A program made the translations under genes and the position numbers. Of a stretch of 52,169 nucleotides of DNA, positions 10,296-18,029 are shown piece by piece. The notes below the pieces were generated by a model that saw only the letters and a program-made list of their open reading frames with translations, had not been told where the DNA came from and ran no database searches. Position 1 is the first letter of the stretch. Each line of letters starts with the position of its first letter. Source of the stretch: an uncultured archaeon (lineage in GTDB: Archaea; Asgardarchaeota; Lokiarchaeia; Sigyniarchaeales; SOKP01); NCBI GenBank assembly GCA_964632315.1, contig CAZWEM010000029.1:3271-55439 (forward strand), given 5' to 3'.

Positions 10296-11435
10296 TTAGC
10301 GTTTCTTTAGAAAATGTCTATAAATAAGCATGTAATTTTTTACGCTAATTATTTTAGGGTTTCGTCTATAACTGGAGGAGATAGGTGCACTACAGCGAGA
10401 ACATAAATTAGAGGTGTGCATCCAATCTTTAAATTCATCTGCGTGAGCTGGATGTTTACAATTTGGACATAAAACTACCCCCCTATTCTTATCTTCGGGA
10501 AGTTTTGGTAATTTAAAGCAAAAAATACATTTGAAATCTTCTTCTGAAATCATAGAACCTTTAGGTCTATATTTATTCAAATCTCGGACTTTAGCTAGAC
10601 TTTGTGAACTTTTAGTTTTTTTTGTAGTTTTAGTCCTTTGAACACGAGCATGGGTAGGTCTAATTCTGGAGTTTTGAGTTCTATTAGAGGTTGTACGCGC
10701 GCTTCTGTTGGAGGAGGGACTTTGAATATTCGATCTGACTCTACGAGTCGTCTGGCTTCTAGGAGTTGCCAAATCATTTATTCTTCTCGTTCTTCGTGCT
10801 ATATACTCTCTTGTCAATTCGGGCATACTAGATTTTTTTCCAAGAAAGCCAAAAATGAATAAATTGAAAATGGATATGATAAGCAGTAGTAAAAGATTAA
10901 GATCTAAAGAAAAACGGAGTGGTGTAAGAGCAGAATTAAACACCTCACTTACATTATAAAAAACAACCCAGTATAAAATGATAAAAATAATTAGTGAAAA
11001 TGCTAAAATAAACCCTAGTGCTCTCGCGTTCATCGACTTAGTTCTAAAATAGATTACTCTGTATTTTTTAAAACATCTATAAAGTGAATGTGACCCATAG
11101 ATCACGAAAGGGAGGCCAAATATAAGACTCCAAAAGCTAAAATAAAGATTAGAGCCAGAAATTAAGTTTTCACCCAAGATTCCAGTAAATGACCCCCAGA
11201 TGGAATAAAAAACTCCAATTAACAAGGGTACAATCACAAAAAAAGCAGTATTATAGGGCGAATTAAACTCCCTATGCCGCTTGATATTTTCAAAGAGTTT
11301 AATCGTAAAAACTAACCAGAATCCAATTAAAATCCACGTTATGAGATTATTCAATGAAGCCGAAATTAGACCATGAATCACTCCAATTAAAAAAAAAATA
11401 GTTAGGATTATTAGAATAGCTTTTCTTTTTACCAT
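10296..11435 (-). CDS. Polytopic membrane protein with C-terminal RING-H2-like zinc finger (putative membrane-anchored E3 ligase)
   Basis: About six hydrophobic helices, R/S/T-rich linker, then CIFC-x16-CPNCKHPAHADEFKDW-x6-CSRC; last gene of the Ubl-E1-E2-JAMM run. Confidence 0.8.
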   Translation of the reverse strand: MVKRKAILIILTIFFLIGVIHGLISASLNNLITWILIGFWLVFTIKLFENIKRHREFNSPYNTAFFVIVPLLIGVFYSIWGSFTGILGENLISGSNLYFSFWSLIFGLPFVIYGSHSLYRCFKKYRVIYFRTKSMNARALGFILAFSLIIFIILYWVVFYNVSEVFNSALTPLRFSLDLNLLLLLIISIFNLFIFGFLGKKSSMPELTREYIARRTRRINDLATPRSQTTRRVRSNIQSPSSNRSARTTSNRTQNSRIRPTHARVQRTKTTKKTKSSQSLAKVRDLNKYRPKGSMISEEDFKCIFCFKLPKLPEDKNRGVVLCPNCKHPAHADEFKDWMHTSNLCSRCSAPISSSYRRNPKIISVKNYMLIYRHFLKKR

Positions 11436-11458
11436 GAACTAATTTCACCAGACTATCA

Positions 11459-12265
11459 TTATTCATCATATTCTAAATAAGCAGGTTTTCCTTCGATTAT
11501 GGGATTCATGAAATCCAAAATCTCAGGTAACATTCCGATATCTAAGTTACCTTTTATATCGAAGGGAACAGAGAACCACTTCTTTTTATTTAAATTAGCA
11601 CGATAAATTTCAAAACCTAGAGATTTTCCATTTATCTTATATGGATCGATGACTAAAGCAATCGCTTTTTCCCATAACTTTTGATACCTTGCTTGAGTTC
11701 CCAAGTCTTCTCTTGACATAAAACATCCATATGATGGGTGGGAATGATACCATCCACAGATGAATAATTTATTCTTTTTAATATCCTTAAATGCCCTTAC
11801 ATAATTTTTATAATCCTTGATTTCAGCATACACTGCAGTACCGTGTCCCATTGGATAGGCATCTTCGATATGTAGAATATCGGAATTATTATCATACTTT
11901 CCAGCTAATAGTCCGATAACCTCTACCCAATCTTCCCTTCTAATGCTAGAGTGAGCATATTTTAATGCGTGGCTTGTTATTTTAAGGATTGCCTTTACAG
12001 TTATTTGGATGTTTGCAGTTGGTTTTTCATAACTTGCAACAGTTTTTATAGGTTCCATTGGGATGGGTTCAAGATTATCCTTAACTTCAACATCTATATG
12101 ATTCAATGGTTGGATATCAATTAGCTCTGATGTTAACTCTTCTTGAAGTTCTTCTTCTATTTGTAATTCTGTATAAATCTCTTCTAGCAATTCTTGTTTT
12201 ATTTTCTCCTTAATTTTTTGTTTAATTGCTTCTTTGATAGCAGCGCTATTTTTATCGGTATTCAT
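11459..12265 (-). CDS. MPN+/JAMM metalloprotease (Rpn11/CSN5-like deconjugase)
   Basis: EVIGLL, GWYHSHPSYGCFMSRED (H-x-H-x7-S-x2-D), ALVIDP; likely start ATG 12265 behind GGTGA overlapping the E2 stop. Confidence 0.92.
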   Translation of the reverse strand: MNTDKNSAAIKEAIKQKIKEKIKQELLEEIYTELQIEEELQEELTSELIDIQPLNHIDVEVKDNLEPIPMEPIKTVASYEKPTANIQITVKAILKITSHALKYAHSSIRREDWVEVIGLLAGKYDNNSDILHIEDAYPMGHGTAVYAEIKDYKNYVRAFKDIKKNKLFICGWYHSHPSYGCFMSREDLGTQARYQKLWEKAIALVIDPYKINGKSLGFEIYRANLNKKKWFSVPFDIKGNLDIGMLPEILDFMNPIIEGKPAYLEYDE

Positions 12266-12272
12266 GGTATAC

Positions 12273-12800
12273 TCACCATTTATCCTTTGCATACTTCTTG
12301 ACTAAATTTTTTACCTTTTTCTCAAACATTTTTTGATTTTTCATCATTTCCAAGGCTGCCTTCTTATTAAAAACATCCGTTGGATTAACGTATTTTCCGC
12401 GAGTATTTAGCATTGCAATTATGGCTTGAACGACGGTAACAGCTGTTTTTGAAGGGCTCCATCCCCCTTTTTTTCCGACTAAAGAAGGATCGACTAGAGC
12501 TAGACAGATATTCCTCTGTCCTTTATATTCACTCGGTTTTGGCCAAAAGTTTGGATGCCAAATGGGTGTGTGTAATCTCACAAAAGGAGGTTGCTTTGGA
12601 TATTGAGCTGGAAATTTCATTTCTAATTTAAATAATCCTCCTGCGTATGCTGTTCCTTTAGGGCCTTTAATTGTTATAGCAACATGATCGATACTTTTTC
12701 TTTTCGGATCAAAGGGTTTTAGTTGAACAATTGTCCCTTCTTTCAACATTTTTTTAAGTCCAGCAAAATCTCGCGAAACTCGACTACTTCTTATACTCAT
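12273..12800 (-). CDS. Ubiquitin-conjugating enzyme E2 (UBC fold)
   Basis: IKGPKGTAYAGGLF, FPAQYPKQPP, IWHPN, catalytic ICL, WSPS. Confidence 0.93.
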   Translation of the reverse strand: MSIRSSRVSRDFAGLKKMLKEGTIVQLKPFDPKRKSIDHVAITIKGPKGTAYAGGLFKLEMKFPAQYPKQPPFVRLHTPIWHPNFWPKPSEYKGQRNICLALVDPSLVGKKGGWSPSKTAVTVVQAIIAMLNTRGKYVNPTDVFNKKAALEMMKNQKMFEKKVKNLVKKYAKDKW

Positions 12801-12859
12801 ATTTTTAACCCCGTATTTTATTTAATTTTGTTTAATTTATTTAGATTTTTATTAATTTT

Positions 12860-14095
12860 TTATTTTAACTTAAGCGTAACCATAATTTCTCCCCCTTTAA
12901 AACCCGCTATCGTCAAAAATTCATAATTTCTCAAATTATTTTCGATAACTGTCTTTTCTAAATCCAATATGATTATATCGTTAAAATCTTGTAAAGTCAT
13001 TAATGGTTCGAGGTCGGGATCCAATTGAAAACCATTCTTCTTCAAAATTTTTATAATATTAATACAAGGAGATCGTTTGCTCATTTTTATAACTACTCTT
13101 CTTACACCTTTCCCACATTGAATGCATTCAGGATTTCGTTTTTTCTCAATGTGATAAAATTTCATAGTCATCGCATTAAATATGACGTAATCTGATTCAG
13201 GTTTTCCTAAACCTTTATGTCCTTTTTCCCAATGAATGATTTTCACGGCTTCATGGGATTGGAGGGCAGAAATAACCGCATTAATCGTGATTATTCCTGG
13301 ATCGTGTCGATCAATTAATTTGACTATGTCATCTTGAGTATATTCGGGCAAGAAATTATATTTGTTTACTAATTCATTTGCAGTTTTTTGAATGAATTTA
13401 ATATCATTTAAATTTTTAGGATTCGGTTCTCTTTCAAATTTTTCCTTAAAAGCCATATCCCCTTTAAATACACAATGAATTCTTTTCCTAGGAATTCCCA
13501 CCACGGTGCAAGCAGCCATTTCATCGTTTTCTACCACCGGCAAGGGATTACATTCATAGCAAGCATTCTTATAAGGAAATATCGTGTAGATATGTCCATG
13601 ATAACCAGAAACTCCTCCATCAACTAAAGGTTTTCTAAACCGGATACATTGTGCATTTAAGTTCAATCTGGCGTTCATAGAATCAAGTCCTCCAATAATA
13701 ACATCAGCATTATAGTACAAGGAAGGATCTAACCTTTCTAAAGAGGTATGGTATCCTATGACGGTGATATTTGGATTAATTTCTCTCAATTTTTTTGCGG
13801 CTACAATAGCTTTAGGCTCACCTAGTCTAGCATCTGTAAAAAGAATTTGTCTGTTTAAATTTGAATGTTCAATAATGTCTAAATCGACGAGATCCAAATG
13901 ACCCACTCCTAACATAGCTAGGTTTTTAGCAATTTCACATCCTAATCCACCTACTCCAATAATTAAGACTCTCGCATTTTTAACTAATTTCTGAGACCAT
14001 CCTTCTAAACGGAATTGCCTGTCATATAAATCTCGTTCTTCCATTGACATTCCTTTTGCAAAAAAATCTGATTCTTTAACCAACCACATCACCAA
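12860..14095 (-). CDS. Ubiquitin-like activating enzyme E1 (ThiF/UBA3-like, with C-terminal ubiquitin-fold domain)
   Basis: LYDRQ, GVGGLG, DLDIIEHSNLNRQ, CYEC and CIQC zinc pairs, catalytic-Cys segment AACTVVGIPRKRIHC; exact start uncertain (14095 to about 14050). Confidence 0.93.
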   Translation of the reverse strand: MVMWLVKESDFFAKGMSMEERDLYDRQFRLEGWSQKLVKNARVLIIGVGGLGCEIAKNLAMLGVGHLDLVDLDIIEHSNLNRQILFTDARLGEPKAIVAAKKLREINPNITVIGYHTSLERLDPSLYYNADVIIGGLDSMNARLNLNAQCIRFRKPLVDGGVSGYHGHIYTIFPYKNACYECNPLPVVENDEMAACTVVGIPRKRIHCVFKGDMAFKEKFEREPNPKNLNDIKFIQKTANELVNKYNFLPEYTQDDIVKLIDRHDPGIITINAVISALQSHEAVKIIHWEKGHKGLGKPESDYVIFNAMTMKFYHIEKKRNPECIQCGKGVRRVVIKMSKRSPCINIIKILKKNGFQLDPDLEPLMTLQDFNDIIILDLEKTVIENNLRNYEFLTIAGFKGGEIMVTLKLK

Positions 14096-14106
14096 TAATA
14101 TTAATC

Positions 14107-14144
14107 AAAAAAATAAAAAAATTGAAGGGCTAAATGCCCTTTCA
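14107..14144 (-). terminator. Hairpin plus T-tract between Ubl gene and E1
   Basis: Minus strand reads AAGGGC-ATTTA-GCCCTT followed by CAATTTTTTTATTTTTTT. Confidence 0.55.
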
Positions 14145-14172
14145 TTATATTATACTCTATGAAGAGAAAGAT

Positions 14173-14505
14173 TTAAACGTATCCAGCAGTACTCGCAGGT
14201 ATTAAAAGAATATCGTCACCATCATTAACGTTATAGTCTTTTAATTGATTGCTTTCGTCCATCGTAACACCACCAGATGAGAGATGGAACTCATCTGGGT
14301 CAAGTCCAAATAAATTTCCTAAAGTATGTTTAATATCGCTTACCTGATTAGCATCATTCACGACCAATTTCTCTTTCTTTTCACCAGGACCAATAGTTGA
14401 CATAAAATACAATGTCACTTTTCGACCTGTAGAGGGGACCTTACTTGATGGGGTTTTAGATTTAACTGGTTCTAATTCCTCATCAAAATCGTCATCAAAA
14501 CTCAT
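14173..14505 (-). CDS. Ubiquitin-like (UFM1-like) modifier 1 with acidic N-terminal tail
   Basis: Beta-grasp pattern KVTLYF...LKDYNVNDGDDILLIPASTAG-YV; first gene of the E1/E2/JAMM/RING run; GTGA upstream. Confidence 0.85.
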   Translation of the reverse strand: MSFDDDFDEELEPVKSKTPSSKVPSTGRKVTLYFMSTIGPGEKKEKLVVNDANQVSDIKHTLGNLFGLDPDEFHLSSGGVTMDESNQLKDYNVNDGDDILLIPASTAGYV

Positions 14506-14762
14506 TCAAATCACTTTTTTTAAGGTTTTTTTTAGTTTTTATTCTGAAAACTTAATAATAACATCTAAAAATACTATTATAAAACCAATTGGAATGATTA
14601 TGAAGTTTTAAAAAATATCAAATTTCGTGAGTTTATAACCATAGTATATTATATCTATATATTTAATGGCAATCTATTAATGCATACTCAATAAAGTTTA
14701 ACACTTAAAGAGAAGAAATATTAATAATAACCTAAATTCTGAATATCACGCATTTTAAACCA

Positions 14763-15440
14763 ATGAGCACTCCAGATGAGGTTGAGCCACTTGTTCTCGG
14801 CTTAATTAAAGAATATTTACAAAAAAAGCCATTCTTTTCAATTGAAGACATAGTTACCTATATAAATAACAGAACTAGAGCAAAACCTTATGTAAATAAA
14901 AATAAAATTGAAAAAATTATTAAAAGACTCATTAAAAAGCGTAGAATTATACCTGGGACTAAATTAATGAAAAATAACATTATTGAGCATCCTATTAGAA
15001 ACGAAATATTTAATTTCGTGAAGAAAAATCCCTCTAATATCAATGAAATTATGAGAGCTTTAAACATCGGCAGTAATCAAACCCTATGGCACTTATCTTG
15101 TTTGGAAAAATTTCAATTCACGCGTTCAAGAGATATTGAAAATCAAAGAATAATTTTCCTCTATGAATCCGATCCGGAATTAGATGAAATTTATTTCTAC
15201 TTAAACCAAGATATTGTTCAAGAAATACTTGACCTGATGATACAAGAAAAGGAATCTCTAAAAGTATCTGATATTTCAAATCAGTTAAAAAAGAATTATA
15301 ATACTATAAAAAAGTATTTACAAATCTTAAGAAAGTTAAGAATAATTTCAATTGAGAAAGATAAGAAAAGAACCCTTTTTAAATTAAATTACAAGGAATA
15401 TGATAAATTTCAAGATTTAATCATTGGAGGAAAAAAATGA
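14763..15440 (+). CDS. Multi-winged-helix (ArsR/HTH-like) DNA-binding protein
   Basis: RNEIFNFVKKNPSNINEIMRAL..WHL..LEK and ISNQLKKNYNTIKKYLQILRKL wHTH repeats. Confidence 0.75.
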   Translation: MSTPDEVEPLVLGLIKEYLQKKPFFSIEDIVTYINNRTRAKPYVNKNKIEKIIKRLIKKRRIIPGTKLMKNNIIEHPIRNEIFNFVKKNPSNINEIMRALNIGSNQTLWHLSCLEKFQFTRSRDIENQRIIFLYESDPELDEIYFYLNQDIVQEILDLMIQEKESLKVSDISNQLKKNYNTIKKYLQILRKLRIISIEKDKKRTLFKLNYKEYDKFQDLIIGGKK

Positions 15441-15519
15441 ATACTTCACAATTATTCCAATGGATTTTATATGGTGAATCATCTATTAAAAATTTAGAAA
15501 ATAATCTATCCTAAAAATT

Positions 15520-16314
15520 ATGAAGAAAAATTCTCGCATTTATTGGACATTAGCTTTGTATCTTATTTTTACAGTATTATACCTACTTTTCTTCATTTTA
15601 AAGATAGATAATTTTCCCTTATTTATCATTTTGACAATCTCTAGCGCTATGGTACTTTCCAGTAGCACTATTTATACTATTTCCCGATCTACAATCACTC
15701 ATAAAAGCCCCACCCCCAAAATTAAACTTTCTCCAACAAAGAAAACATTGGGTAAATTTACTTCAGAATTAATTGAAGATTATTTTGAAGCAATGCCAAT
15801 AATCGACCAGTACGCCGATTCAGACGCCCCTTATGAGGAAATTTCCCGAATAGACGAATATGTTTTTACAGAATTTAATAACGAGGATCTAATGAAAATT
15901 GATAGCTTAAAATTATCAAAAATGGACAAGATTTTTTTTCTGAGGGAAATGCTTTACTTTGAACCTAATGAAAGGAGATATTTAATCAATGAGATGCTTA
16001 AATATCAAGAAGACCCAAATATACCCGTTTCATATACTCCATTAATAACCCCTTTTGGTATTGAAGATAAATTACGAATCTATTCTCGGTCATTGATAGA
16101 ACCAGGAGAAAAAACAAAGATAATTATTATTGAAAAATCAGATTTTATTAGCGAAGTGAAACTTAAAATTGGGACTTTATTCGATTATGATTTGGATGAT
16201 TTTGTTTTATCGTCTGGAGGGATTATATTAGATGAAAAATTGCAAATTAATCATTATAATATCGAAGATGATGATGAAATTGCTATTATACCCTCAAGAA
16301 AAGAAAGAAAATAA
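15520..16314 (+). CDS. Two-TM membrane protein with C-terminal Ubl domain paralogous to the modifiers (no terminal Gly)
   Basis: Two N-terminal hydrophobic helices; C-terminal 80 aa about 31/80 identical (manual, ungapped) to Ubl1 (PGEK, LSSGG, DE, IP) ending SRKERK. Confidence 0.8.
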   Translation: MKKNSRIYWTLALYLIFTVLYLLFFILKIDNFPLFIILTISSAMVLSSSTIYTISRSTITHKSPTPKIKLSPTKKTLGKFTSELIEDYFEAMPIIDQYADSDAPYEEISRIDEYVFTEFNNEDLMKIDSLKLSKMDKIFFLREMLYFEPNERRYLINEMLKYQEDPNIPVSYTPLITPFGIEDKLRIYSRSLIEPGEKTKIIIIEKSDFISEVKLKIGTLFDYDLDDFVLSSGGIILDEKLQINHYNIEDDDEIAIIPSRKERK

Positions 16315-16315
16315 A

Positions 16316-16735
16316 TTAAATGTTTATTTTACCAGCTGTACTAGCTGGAATTAATAATATATCATCTCCATCACTCACATGATAATCACTCAAATGAGTT
16401 CTTTCATCCATAGTGATACCTCCAGAAGATAAATGAAAATCGACTGGATCCAGTCCAAAAATATTAGCGACGGTTTCTTTAATTGCACCAACAAGATTTC
16501 CTGTATTTACTAATAATTTTTGCTTTTTTTCCCCTGGACCAATAGTAGACATAAAAAAGACGGATATTTTGTCACCTTCAACGGATACCTCTGGTGTCTT
16601 AGTTGAAGGTTCTAAATCTGGAGACTTTGAAGGCGGTCCCTCAAGCGATTCTTCTGAATCATCTCCTAAATCTTCATCTAGATCTTCATCAAATTCTTCA
16701 TCGAATTCATCATCAAACTCTTCGTCAAAATCCAT
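16316..16735 (-). CDS. Ubiquitin-like (UFM1-like) modifier 2 with long acidic N-terminal tail
   Basis: True start likely MDFDEEF at 16735 (GGTG upstream); core 56/80 identical to Ubl1 by manual alignment; ends LIPASTAG-KINI. Confidence 0.85.
   Translation of the reverse strand: MDFDEEFDDEFDEEFDEDLDEDLGDDSEESLEGPPSKSPDLEPSTKTPEVSVEGDKISVFFMSTIGPGEKKQKLLVNTGNLVGAIKETVANIFGLDPVDFHLSSGGITMDERTHLSDYHVSDGDDILLIPASTAGKINI
16669..16732 (-). repeat. Imperfect 12-bp/4-aa coding repeat (DFDE EFDD EFDE EFDE DLDE DL)
   Basis: F/L every fourth residue in a D/E tract; tcttcatc/tcatc units on + strand. Confidence 0.65.
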
Positions 16736-16871
16736 TTTTAGCACACCAAATATATCTAAGTAATTAATAGAATTTATAGTATATAAAAATATGAGAAAAC
16801 TTAAGAAAGCAAACACTTTAGAAGCTGTCTTGATATAAATATAATATAGAAAATTATTGAGTGTTCTAAAG

Positions 16872-18029
16872 ATGGATGAAAAACCTATTCCCAAGCAACA
16901 GATTCGAGAAAAACTTCCTAAAGAGGAATTAGATGCAGATTTTGATTCTGACTTGTTGAGAAAAATAAGGAAGGAAAGATTTAAATTGAGCAAGGAAAAA
17001 GAGGAATGGGAAAAAATATTGAACAAAATCCAAGAATATGATGAAAGTATCGAAGATCTAGAAAAGAAAAGAAAACAAAAAGAAATCGAACTTAGAAATC
17101 TAGTAAATCAGAATGAAAAACTTAAAAATGAGTTAGAAAAAAATAATAATGAAATTAAACAAGCAAATAGCATTCTAAAATCGAGAGAGAAAGAATTAAA
17201 TCAAAAAATTGATGATTTAAATAAATATAAACAGAAATTGGATAAGATTAGAGATGATATTGAAGAAGAAAGAAAAAAATTAAAACAAGAGAAAGATAAA
17301 GCTGAAGAACGCATAGAAAAAATTAAAACCAAAATTCCAGGCATGGAAAGAAGAGAGAATGCGTTAGAACGAACAGTCAATGATTTTGAAGATAAACTTC
17401 AAAATCTAAGGAATGAACTGAGAGAATTAACTAACAAAAGAAACTCTCTTAACAAGGAATTAAGTGATTTAAAGAGACAAATGGTGGATGAAAAAAATAG
17501 AATAGATGAAGAGAAAAAAAAATTAAAAGAAGAAAGAGATAAAAACCGAATAAAAAAGAATGAATTAAAATCATTAAATCGAGATATAGAAAATAAACAA
17601 GACAAACTAGAAAAGGAACAAGATAAAAGAGAAAGAGAAATCAAGTCGTTGGAACGGAAAAAATCGAATCTGGAATCAAGATTAAAGGAATTAGAAAAAA
17701 AAATTCCAAAATATGAGAACCAGTATTATTCTAATCAAGATAAAATAAAAGATTCTGAAGAAAAGATTAAAAAATTAAATTCTGACGTAAAAAAGTTGGA
17801 AAATGAAAAAGCAAAGCTCGCTTCTGAAATCAGAAATAAAGAAAAAGCGATAATGAAAGAAGATTCAAGAATAAGAGAAGAAAAAAATGCTATCAAAAAA
17901 GAAAGAGAAAAACTCGAAAAAGATAAAGCTCGTTTTATTAGGGAAAAAAGAGATTTTGAAAAATCATTAATAAAAGCAAAGAGTATACCAAAAACAAAAA
18001 TTAAGTCAAAAACTCCTTCTAAATATTAG
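16872..18029 (+). CDS. Long coiled-coil protein, function unknown
   Basis: About 340 aa of nearly uninterrupted K/E/L heptads, no ATPase motifs; likely ATG 16872. Confidence 0.75.
   Translation: MDEKPIPKQQIREKLPKEELDADFDSDLLRKIRKERFKLSKEKEEWEKILNKIQEYDESIEDLEKKRKQKEIELRNLVNQNEKLKNELEKNNNEIKQANSILKSREKELNQKIDDLNKYKQKLDKIRDDIEEERKKLKQEKDKAEERIEKIKTKIPGMERRENALERTVNDFEDKLQNLRNELRELTNKRNSLNKELSDLKRQMVDEKNRIDEEKKKLKEERDKNRIKKNELKSLNRDIENKQDKLEKEQDKREREIKSLERKKSNLESRLKELEKKIPKYENQYYSNQDKIKDSEEKIKKLNSDVKKLENEKAKLASEIRNKEKAIMKEDSRIREEKNAIKKEREKLEKDKARFIREKRDFEKSLIKAKSIPKTKIKSKTPSKY

Follow-up and report, generated by a model that had tools for sequence, protein, structure and literature searches.

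Ubiquitin-like (Ubl) domains that are held at a membrane and are not conjugated are familiar from eukaryotes, where HERP, Usa1 and TMUB1 are membrane UBL scaffolds of endoplasmic-reticulum-associated degradation (ERAD), HERP and Usa1 acting for Hrd1. Holding a DNA-binding regulator at the membrane is a second known principle: in Bacillus subtilis, SdpI sequesters the ArsR-type autorepressor SdpR at the membrane, and RsgI and RseA are membrane anti-sigma factors, RsgI-type receptors bearing carbohydrate-binding ectodomains. Ubiquitin-type control of membrane-tethered transcription factors has so far been known from eukaryotes, through Spt23/Mga2 and Nrf1. Two further membrane-anchored Ubl proteins act on the ubiquitin cascade, in that MUB acts as an inhibitor of E2~Ub formation (PMC4996978) and MARCH ligases need UBL3 for ubiquitination (PMC9001657). 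In Pyrococcus furiosus, pf1089 encodes a protein of unknown function with four predicted transmembrane (TM) segments and is co-transcribed with TFB-RF1, an activator of its own operon; the study describing them reports no binding of PF1089 to TFB-RF1 (PMC5937170). Here we describe TM-Ubl, a gene at 15520..16314 on the forward strand of a 52,169-nucleotide stretch of DNA (hereafter the window; contig CAZWEM010000029.1, positions 3,271 to 55,439) from an uncultured archaeon of the Lokiarchaeia. TM-Ubl appears to combine the first two of these principles, as a membrane-anchored non-conjugatable Ubl that is predicted to tether an ArsR-type regulator. Our literature search, which included papers on Asgard ubiquitin and endosomal sorting (ESCRT) systems, found no tethered Ubl of this kind and no description of the gene cassette to which we assign it below. 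The ubiquitin-type systems of Asgard archaea are investigated as the forerunners of those in eukaryotes, and their cellular wiring is little known. All evidence on TM-Ubl and the cassette is computational.

The TM-Ubl open reading frame (ORF) encodes 264 amino acids (aa), laid out as a pair of hydrophobic helices, a linker that is basic and disordered, a helical domain and a ubiquitin-fold domain. The hydrophobic hairpin (15544..15684, +) comprises TM1 (aa 9-28) and TM2 (aa 33-55) with a 4-residue loop between them. Kyte-Doolittle means over a 19-residue window are 1.5-2.5 for these segments, and AlphaFold2 (AF2) places helices at aa 3-27 and 32-46, so that hydropathy and structure prediction both bear out the two TM helices proposed in an initial annotation of this DNA. 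Positive charge is found at the N-terminus (MKKNSR) and again after helix 2 (about +8 over aa 56-80); the topology is therefore likely N-in/C-in, with both ends and everything downstream of the hairpin in the cytoplasm. The juxtamembrane linker (15685..15756, +; aa 56-79) is Lys/Arg-rich in the family consensus and has a predicted local distance difference test (pLDDT) score of 34-48, and the disorder predicted by AF2 extends over aa 46-86 (pLDDT < 50). What had been annotated as a helical linker is actually two things, namely this disordered basic stretch at aa 46-86 and a discrete conserved helical domain at aa ~80-168.

The ubiquitin-fold (beta-grasp) domain occupies aa 184-258 (16069..16293, +). 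The Pfam ubiquitin model PF00240 matches aa 198-254 at 29 bits, above its gathering score of 25.4, and AF2 folds aa 184-258 as a beta-grasp with a pLDDT of about 85. Foldseek aligned this model to ubiquitin and ISG15 chains at a TM-score of ~0.9, with a root-mean-square deviation of 1.1-1.3 Å over 75-78 residues. The gene is flanked by those of two soluble Ubls, Ubl1 and Ubl2, to which the domain is 38% and 33% identical, respectively, by MAFFT (gapless over the last 80 residues), close to the ~39% first estimated for Ubl1. A PGEK loop, the motif F.LSSGG and a DY..D.D.I..IP segment are common to the soluble Ubls and invariant in the tethered form. The C-terminal ends differ: TM-Ubl closes with IIPSRKERK, in which a basic tail, SRKERK (16294..16311, +), stands where relatives have STAG, whereas Ubl1 ends PASTAG-YV and Ubl2 PASTAG-KINI. 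Nearly all of 119 full-length family members share an IPSRK(K/E..) end without Gly, the divergent members of the tethered clade (269-293 aa) lack the conjugation Gly without exception, and an exhaustive profile search found that other relatives of the domain, free or fused, all end in IPSSTAG followed by 0-6 residues. Because the Gly-less end is kept across the tethered clade while other relatives have IPSSTAG, we regard it as a fixed, clade-defining trait and not as decay. With STAG replaced by SRK(K), the domain lacks the C-terminal Gly of conjugatable (type I) Ubl modifiers, and E1 should therefore be unable to activate it. The description of the protein as membrane-tethered and non-conjugatable thus stands on both counts, a TM hairpin being present and the Gly kept by soluble and otherwise fused relatives being gone.

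We assessed conservation by searching 5.8 billion proteins, in which 343 relatives of TM-Ubl were found. Among the best 120 of these, almost all are 262-267 aa long, identity extends down to about 50%, and the named sources are Lokiarchaeota/Promethearchaeota assemblies. The family alignment is conserved in every region of the protein, the middle included. Of 151 genomes sampled from the order, 90 have a full-length copy. They belong to four genera within a single family: g1 (34 of 41, to which the genome of the window is added; many of the match-free g1 genomes are only 79-87% complete), g2 (49 of 53), g45 (3 of 8) and g46 (3 of 6). The gene was not found in other genera or families of the order in this 151-genome sample, and a phylum-wide sample agrees. 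The initial annotation had named absence or decay in related genomes as the observation that would speak against it; the gene is intact and not decaying.

The helical domain between linker and Ubl (15757..16023, +; aa 80-168), which we call the tail domain, is a conserved module of ~85 aa. AF2 predicts its helical part at aa ~88-164, with the last three helices at a pLDDT of about 90 when the domain is folded alone, and a tail-domain profile recovers aa 80-168 of TM-Ubl at 7.4e-28. The domain has no Pfam or NCBIfam match. No Foldseek match in the PDB improved on E = 5, a VIA-align comparison with 48,161 chains yielded only generic helical bundles (Z <= 4.0), and the ESM Atlas held no neighbour by features or by shape; no known fold can therefore be assigned, and the family appears to be undescribed. 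We also considered a UBA/CUE-like Ubl-binding three-helix bundle and found no support for it. Nor does the domain match anti-sigma or SdpI domains in sequence or fold, a missing match that leaves kinship possible.

Profile searches recovered the tail domain, often with a preceding TM helix, at the very C-terminal end of numerous longer Lokiarchaeota proteins, 400-2,000 aa in length. Most of these long proteins begin with a signal-peptide-like hydrophobic segment, their ectodomains are of beta-helix/NosD, beta-propeller, Laminin-G or Kelch type, and a single TM lies about 80-250 residues from the C-terminus. The combination of signal peptide, ectodomain and single late TM marks them as type-I surface proteins with the tail domain in the cytoplasm. 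In profile matches, TM2 of TM-Ubl aligns with the lone C-terminal TM of these proteins, and TM-Ubl accordingly looks like a type-I protein with an ectodomain reduced to four residues and a Ubl domain added to its tail. Some surface proteins contain two tail-domain copies. In two beta-helix surface proteins, P0177 (L021 1299..5291) and P0236, a RING-like zinc finger rich in Cys and His comes after the tail domain, which would be a second link of the tail domain to ubiquitin-type machinery. Up to 15 tail-domain matches occur in one sister genome. The window's own genome contains TM-Ubl as its sole tail-domain protein, besides one weak match on contig C25, so pairing of its tail with the tails of other surface proteins cannot be its function there and was excluded. 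We also observed stand-alone tail-domain ORFs of 85-98 aa without a TM or a neighbouring regulator gene (G030:C39:18176-18388, G030:C10:8766-8987, G150:C184, G150:C222, G117:C3 and G019:C194).

The recurrent genomic partner of the tail domain is a tandem winged-helix protein. In the window, this winged helix-turn-helix (wHTH) gene (14763..15440, +; 225 aa) ends 79 bp upstream of TM-Ubl. The protein matches Pfam HTH_5 at 1.4e-10, aa 72-124 and aa 141-220 have ArsR/SdpR-like matches in the PDB and NCBIfam, and the second winged helix (aa 141-220) matches models of ArsR/SmtB, CzrA, HlyU and SdpR type; the NCBIfam SdpR-like model scores 2.6e-8, below its cut-off. Genomes of a sister genus, g3, encode 11-19 wHTH paralogues each, the best of which lie directly beside long tail-domain genes. 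Same-strand adjacency was checked at the level of ORFs in loci L013-L016, L020 and L023, of which L020 comes from the window's own genus. Across four g3 genomes, 25 of 38 tail-domain ORFs directly adjoin a same-strand wHTH paralogue, which lies upstream in 9 pairs, as in the window (type A), and downstream at 32-211 bp in 16 (type B). Several of the 13 unpaired ORFs lie at contig ends or are stand-alone tails of 85-98 aa.

Partners within these pairs have also diversified together. The distance matrices of wHTH and tail over the 25 pairs correlate at r = 0.87, a value somewhat inflated by kinship among the four g3 genomes, and none of 2000 permutations was as high. The wHTH protein and the tail domain of the window have the same nearest non-orthologous pair, the type-A cassette L020, which indicates that the window pair descends from a receptor/regulator cassette. 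TM-Ubl shares with the cassettes a tail after the last TM and an adjacent, same-strand, co-diversifying wHTH gene; in place of their signal peptide and large ectodomain it has 4 residues between its hydrophobic helices. Type-B cassettes, with the membrane protein gene first and the regulator second, resemble the pf1089/TFB-RF1 operon in gene order.

Two side observations bear on the regulator family. Short wHTH paralogues of 141-155 aa (L013 3168..3593; L015 2483..2950; L017 2948..3373; L021 772..1212) comprise the N-terminal part predicted to bind the tail, without the second winged helix of ArsR type. In some type-A cassettes their genes separate the full-length wHTH gene from that of the receptor, and they could be competitors or co-factors. 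The weak C25 match in the window's own genome (G000:C25:19839-23021; L009 217..1836; E 0.009, unconfirmed by a purpose-built hidden Markov model) is a 540-aa polytopic membrane protein with C-terminal helical tail-like motifs. It is followed, with overlap, by a gene for a 318-aa wHTH paralogue (L009 1794..2747; E 2e-18), and the two may form a distant type-B cassette.

We then modelled the window's wHTH protein together with its tail domain. Complex prediction gave scores of 0.79, 0.79 and 0.81, the best of 3 controls reaching 0.11. The pass mark of this procedure is reached by 58 of 80 solved complexes and by 2 of 110 mismatched pairs, rates that apply only roughly here because custom alignments were used for wHTH and tail. 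The predicted complex has 149-165 contacts, at least 92% of which agree between runs, and a partner pLDDT of 87-88. On wHTH, the interface runs from aa 12 to aa 131 and is formed by the N-terminal helices together with the first winged helix (aa 72-124), with K54 and W109 among the predicted contacts; the ArsR-type second winged helix (aa 141-220) is absent from the listed touching residues. On the tail it takes in most of the domain, F116, F140 and L155 included. We know of no similar solved complex that the model could have memorised. Binding of the wHTH protein by the tail domain is thus supported by the model, not proven.

The architecture and conservation of TM-Ubl, its Gly-less end, the recurrent pairing and co-diversification, and a passing complex prediction are the computed results that bear on its function. 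We favour the reading that TM-Ubl belongs to a Lokiarchaeial receptor/regulator cassette as a member without an ectodomain, tethering its regulator and using its non-activatable Ubl as a cytoplasmic input or handle, and we put the probability of this reading at about one half. Such a cassette would consist of a membrane protein with a cytoplasmic tail domain after its last TM and a cognate tandem winged-helix (ArsR-type) regulator, which in TM-Ubl would be held at the membrane by aa 80-168. The ectodomain would supply the signal in ordinary cassettes, and in TM-Ubl the Ubl domain behind the tail would replace this extracellular sensor. As the Ubl domain keeps residues of the soluble Ubls but cannot be activated, we propose that it is read, whether bound, modified or extracted, by the recognisers of soluble Ubls: E1, E2, the JAMM protease, a membrane-embedded RING protein (TM-RING), an unfoldase or the proteasome. 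This reading of the domain would change the tethering or the stability of the anchor, and the amount of regulator held, and tethering would then act, in one direction or the other, on a wHTH protein that presumably binds DNA as a transcription factor. The state of the tagging system would be coupled in this way to transcription of the block formed by wHTH, TM-Ubl and perhaps Ubl2, with feedback possibly also on the divergent operon that encodes Ubl1 and the conjugation enzymes. The wider proposal, that Lokiarchaeia possess a large undescribed class of one-to-one receptor/winged-helix cassettes of which TM-Ubl is a derived member, and that a Ubl system there controls a tethered transcription factor, we advance tentatively, with the odds leaning somewhat against it.

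Compared with the systems described at the outset, TM-Ubl resembles SdpI-SdpR, RsgI and RseA in being a membrane protein encoded beside a putative DNA-binding regulator that it is predicted to hold at the membrane. The second winged helix of wHTH is, like SdpR, of ArsR type, and the ectodomains found in sister cassettes (beta-helix, LamG and propeller) recall those of RsgI. Unlike these systems, the one described here is archaeal, its regulator has two winged helices, and the proposed sensor of TM-Ubl is a cytoplasmic ubiquitin fold. With MUB and UBL3 it shares a ubiquitin fold without the conjugation Gly, placed permanently at the membrane beside a ubiquitin-type cascade, and, as UBL3 acts with TM-RING (MARCH) ligases, so a TM-RING gene lies in the TM-Ubl locus. 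Its anchor, however, is an N-terminal TM hairpin with no Cys near the C-terminus, whereas MUB and UBL3 are prenylated at a C-terminal CAAX, and it has in addition the tail domain, for which binding to a winged-helix regulator is predicted; past the ubiquitin fold we saw no specific sequence kinship with them. HERP, Usa1 and TMUB1 likewise join a TM hairpin to a non-conjugated UBL in a system with a polytopic RING ligase, but in the opposite order, with the UBL N-terminal and the hairpin after it, whereas the hairpin of TM-Ubl comes first and its UBL is C-terminal. No homology to these proteins was detected outside the beta-grasp, and, again unlike them, the TM-Ubl gene co-varies with wHTH and not with TM-RING.

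This co-variation is seen in the organisation of the locus. Gene order is the same in the window as in orthologous loci with 53-56% identity: TM-RING, JAMM, E2, E1 and Ubl1 on the reverse strand (10296-14505), divergent from wHTH and TM-Ubl on the forward strand, then Ubl2 on the reverse strand and a coiled-coil gene. Ubl1 (14173..14505, -; 110 aa) is the first gene of the divergent operon, and Ubl2 (16316..16735, -; 139 aa) is the third gene of the wHTH/TM-Ubl/Ubl2 block. TM-Ubl sits between the two soluble Ubl genes as originally annotated, its TAA stop (16312-16314) one base apart from the opposite-strand stop of Ubl2 (16316-16318). The gene for the coiled-coil protein (SMC/Rad50-like; 16857-18029, +; 390 aa) adjoins the Ubl operon in all lineages that we inspected, even in the genus without the block. 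That genus is g3, where the operon lies directly beside the coiled-coil gene and wHTH, TM-Ubl and Ubl2 are jointly missing; TM-Ubl therefore travels with wHTH and not with TM-RING. The co-occurrence with TM-RING that had been suggested as a check holds in one direction only: TM-RING is present at the inspected TM-Ubl loci, but g3 keeps TM-RING, JAMM, E2, E1 and Ubl without the block.

Several observations weigh against the favoured reading. The presence of the Ubl operon in g3 without the wHTH/TM-Ubl/Ubl2 block means that the operon is independent of the block, and a genome search with a conserved intergenic motif (see below) yields no regulon. Within the predicted wHTH-tail interface, invariant residues are not clearly enriched, and the score of that complex is the model's own confidence, obtained from custom alignments. 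DNA binding by wHTH is argued from weak ArsR-type matches (Pfam E 1e-10, PDB 1e-3). Adjacency and co-diversification would be equally expected if wHTH merely activated its neighbour without touching it, as in the case of TFB-RF1 and pf1089 (PMC5937170).

The strongest competing explanation, close to that of the initial annotation, is that TM-Ubl is a static membrane scaffold or decoy, whose Gly-less Ubl non-covalently recruits or inhibits the E2 backside, E1, JAMM, TM-RING or a AAA unfoldase, in the manner of MUB and UBL3 with E2s and MARCH-type ligases and of HERP and Usa1 with Hrd1, contact with wHTH being incidental or secondary. The residues of soluble Ubls that are invariant in the tethered form suggest that the same recognition surfaces are kept, a RING protein of ~6 TM helices, E2, E1 and JAMM are all encoded within 5 kb in an order that is syntenic in all inspected loci, and MUB (PMC4996978) and UBL3 (PMC9001657) demonstrate that membrane-anchored non-conjugatable Ubls acting on the cascade exist. 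Set against this are the TM-RING operon without TM-Ubl in a sister genus and the derivation of both the anchor and the middle domain from a receptor/regulator cassette partnered with wHTH. As a full account of TM-Ubl we consider the scaffold or decoy unlikely; it is compatible with the tethering of a regulator and not exclusive of it. Of the earlier interpretation, the anchored, Gly-less and conserved protein remains, but the recurrent genomic and predicted partner of its middle domain turned out to be wHTH and no Ubl-pathway enzyme. The accompanying suggestion that TM-Ubl is independent evidence for a system working at the membrane has also lost force, because an anchor apparently inherited from a type-I receptor-like family is weak evidence for a membrane conjugation system.

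Winged helices also serve as protein-protein adaptors, as in the ESCRT-II/PCI-like type, and wHTH could be such an adaptor, in a module that sorts, anchors or couples its membrane proteins to the cytoskeleton and to which TM-Ubl adds a Ubl sorting signal. In the predicted complex the first winged helix contacts protein and not DNA, the short paralogues without a second winged helix lie inside cassettes, and the fusion of tail domains to RING-like zinc fingers in P0177 and P0236 would fit. We nevertheless find this improbable: one-to-one co-diversifying pairs typify specific signalling and not a general adaptor that serves a range of cargoes, the matches of the second winged helix are to DNA-binding regulators of ArsR/SmtB type, and library searches gave wHTH no match to ESCRT-II, PCI or cullin models. 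More improbable still, by analogy with the ubiquitin-fusion degradation (UFD) pathway, in which chains are built on non-cleavable ubiquitin fusions, TM-RING might build Ubl1/Ubl2 chains on the tethered Ubl as an acceptor or primer, giving a membrane-bound chain or turnover of the anchor; the ligase is membrane-embedded and the Ubl domain and its SRK(K) tail are Lys-rich, with K200 and K214 invariant, but the idea is purely inferential and leaves the tail domain and its pairing with wHTH unexplained.

If the Ubl domain of TM-Ubl serves as the sensor for a tethered regulator, a transcription factor at the membrane would be under the control of an archaeal ubiquitin-like system, and the predicted coupling to a DNA-binding regulator would connect tagging with transcription in a concrete way. 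In itself, a membrane-anchored Ubl that is strictly conserved and non-conjugatable would be an archaeal counterpart of the eukaryotic type-II Ubl-domain proteins. Transmembrane signalling devices are poorly known in archaea, and the tail-domain/wHTH cassette may be one that extends across the lineage; it also introduces a new domain family together with its predicted partner, both of which are testable as small soluble proteins.

Two intergenic elements accompany the block. A conserved 24-nt segment containing CCAATTGG (14580-14605, no strand assigned) lies in the divergent intergenic region between Ubl1 and wHTH and is a candidate cis-element; it hardly varies between three orthologous loci with about 55% identity at the protein level. 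A related TTATTCCAATGGA element (about 15447-15466) directly precedes a TATA-like TTTATAT, ~54-70 bp upstream of the TM-Ubl start, and is kept in orthologous loci as a further candidate site. The CCAATTGG pattern has 15 matches in the genome, compared to 3 for a control pattern; the exact genomic copies lie inside coding regions and the count in the window is not above chance, and we dropped the idea of a CCAATTGG regulon.

Among the soluble Ubls, the longest ORF of Ubl2 (16316-17026, -) would begin at a TTG at 17026 and encode 236 aa with an odd hydrophobic N-terminus; since Ubl2 orthologues are 133-139 aa long, the ATG at 16735 is the likely start. A third soluble paralogue lies outside the locus (G000:C39:14086-14346; L007 1438..1779; 113 aa, ending SSTAG-IF), so the window's genome has three conjugatable-looking Ubls in addition to the tethered one, while the sister genus g3 gave one Ubl match only. 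The same Ubl family includes other architectures, namely a triple tandem Ubl polyprotein in which STAG ends each unit (P0136), an ATPase-Ubl fusion (P0169) and another Asgard-type Ubl architecture (P0147). P0144 and P0207 were considered as further TM and Ubl proteins and set aside as analogues, their hydrophobic stretch being probably a buried strand. Both are Ubl fusions whose N-termini resemble, by eye, Roadblock/LC7-type domains, and P0207 likewise ends without Gly, in IIPAKYKVK.

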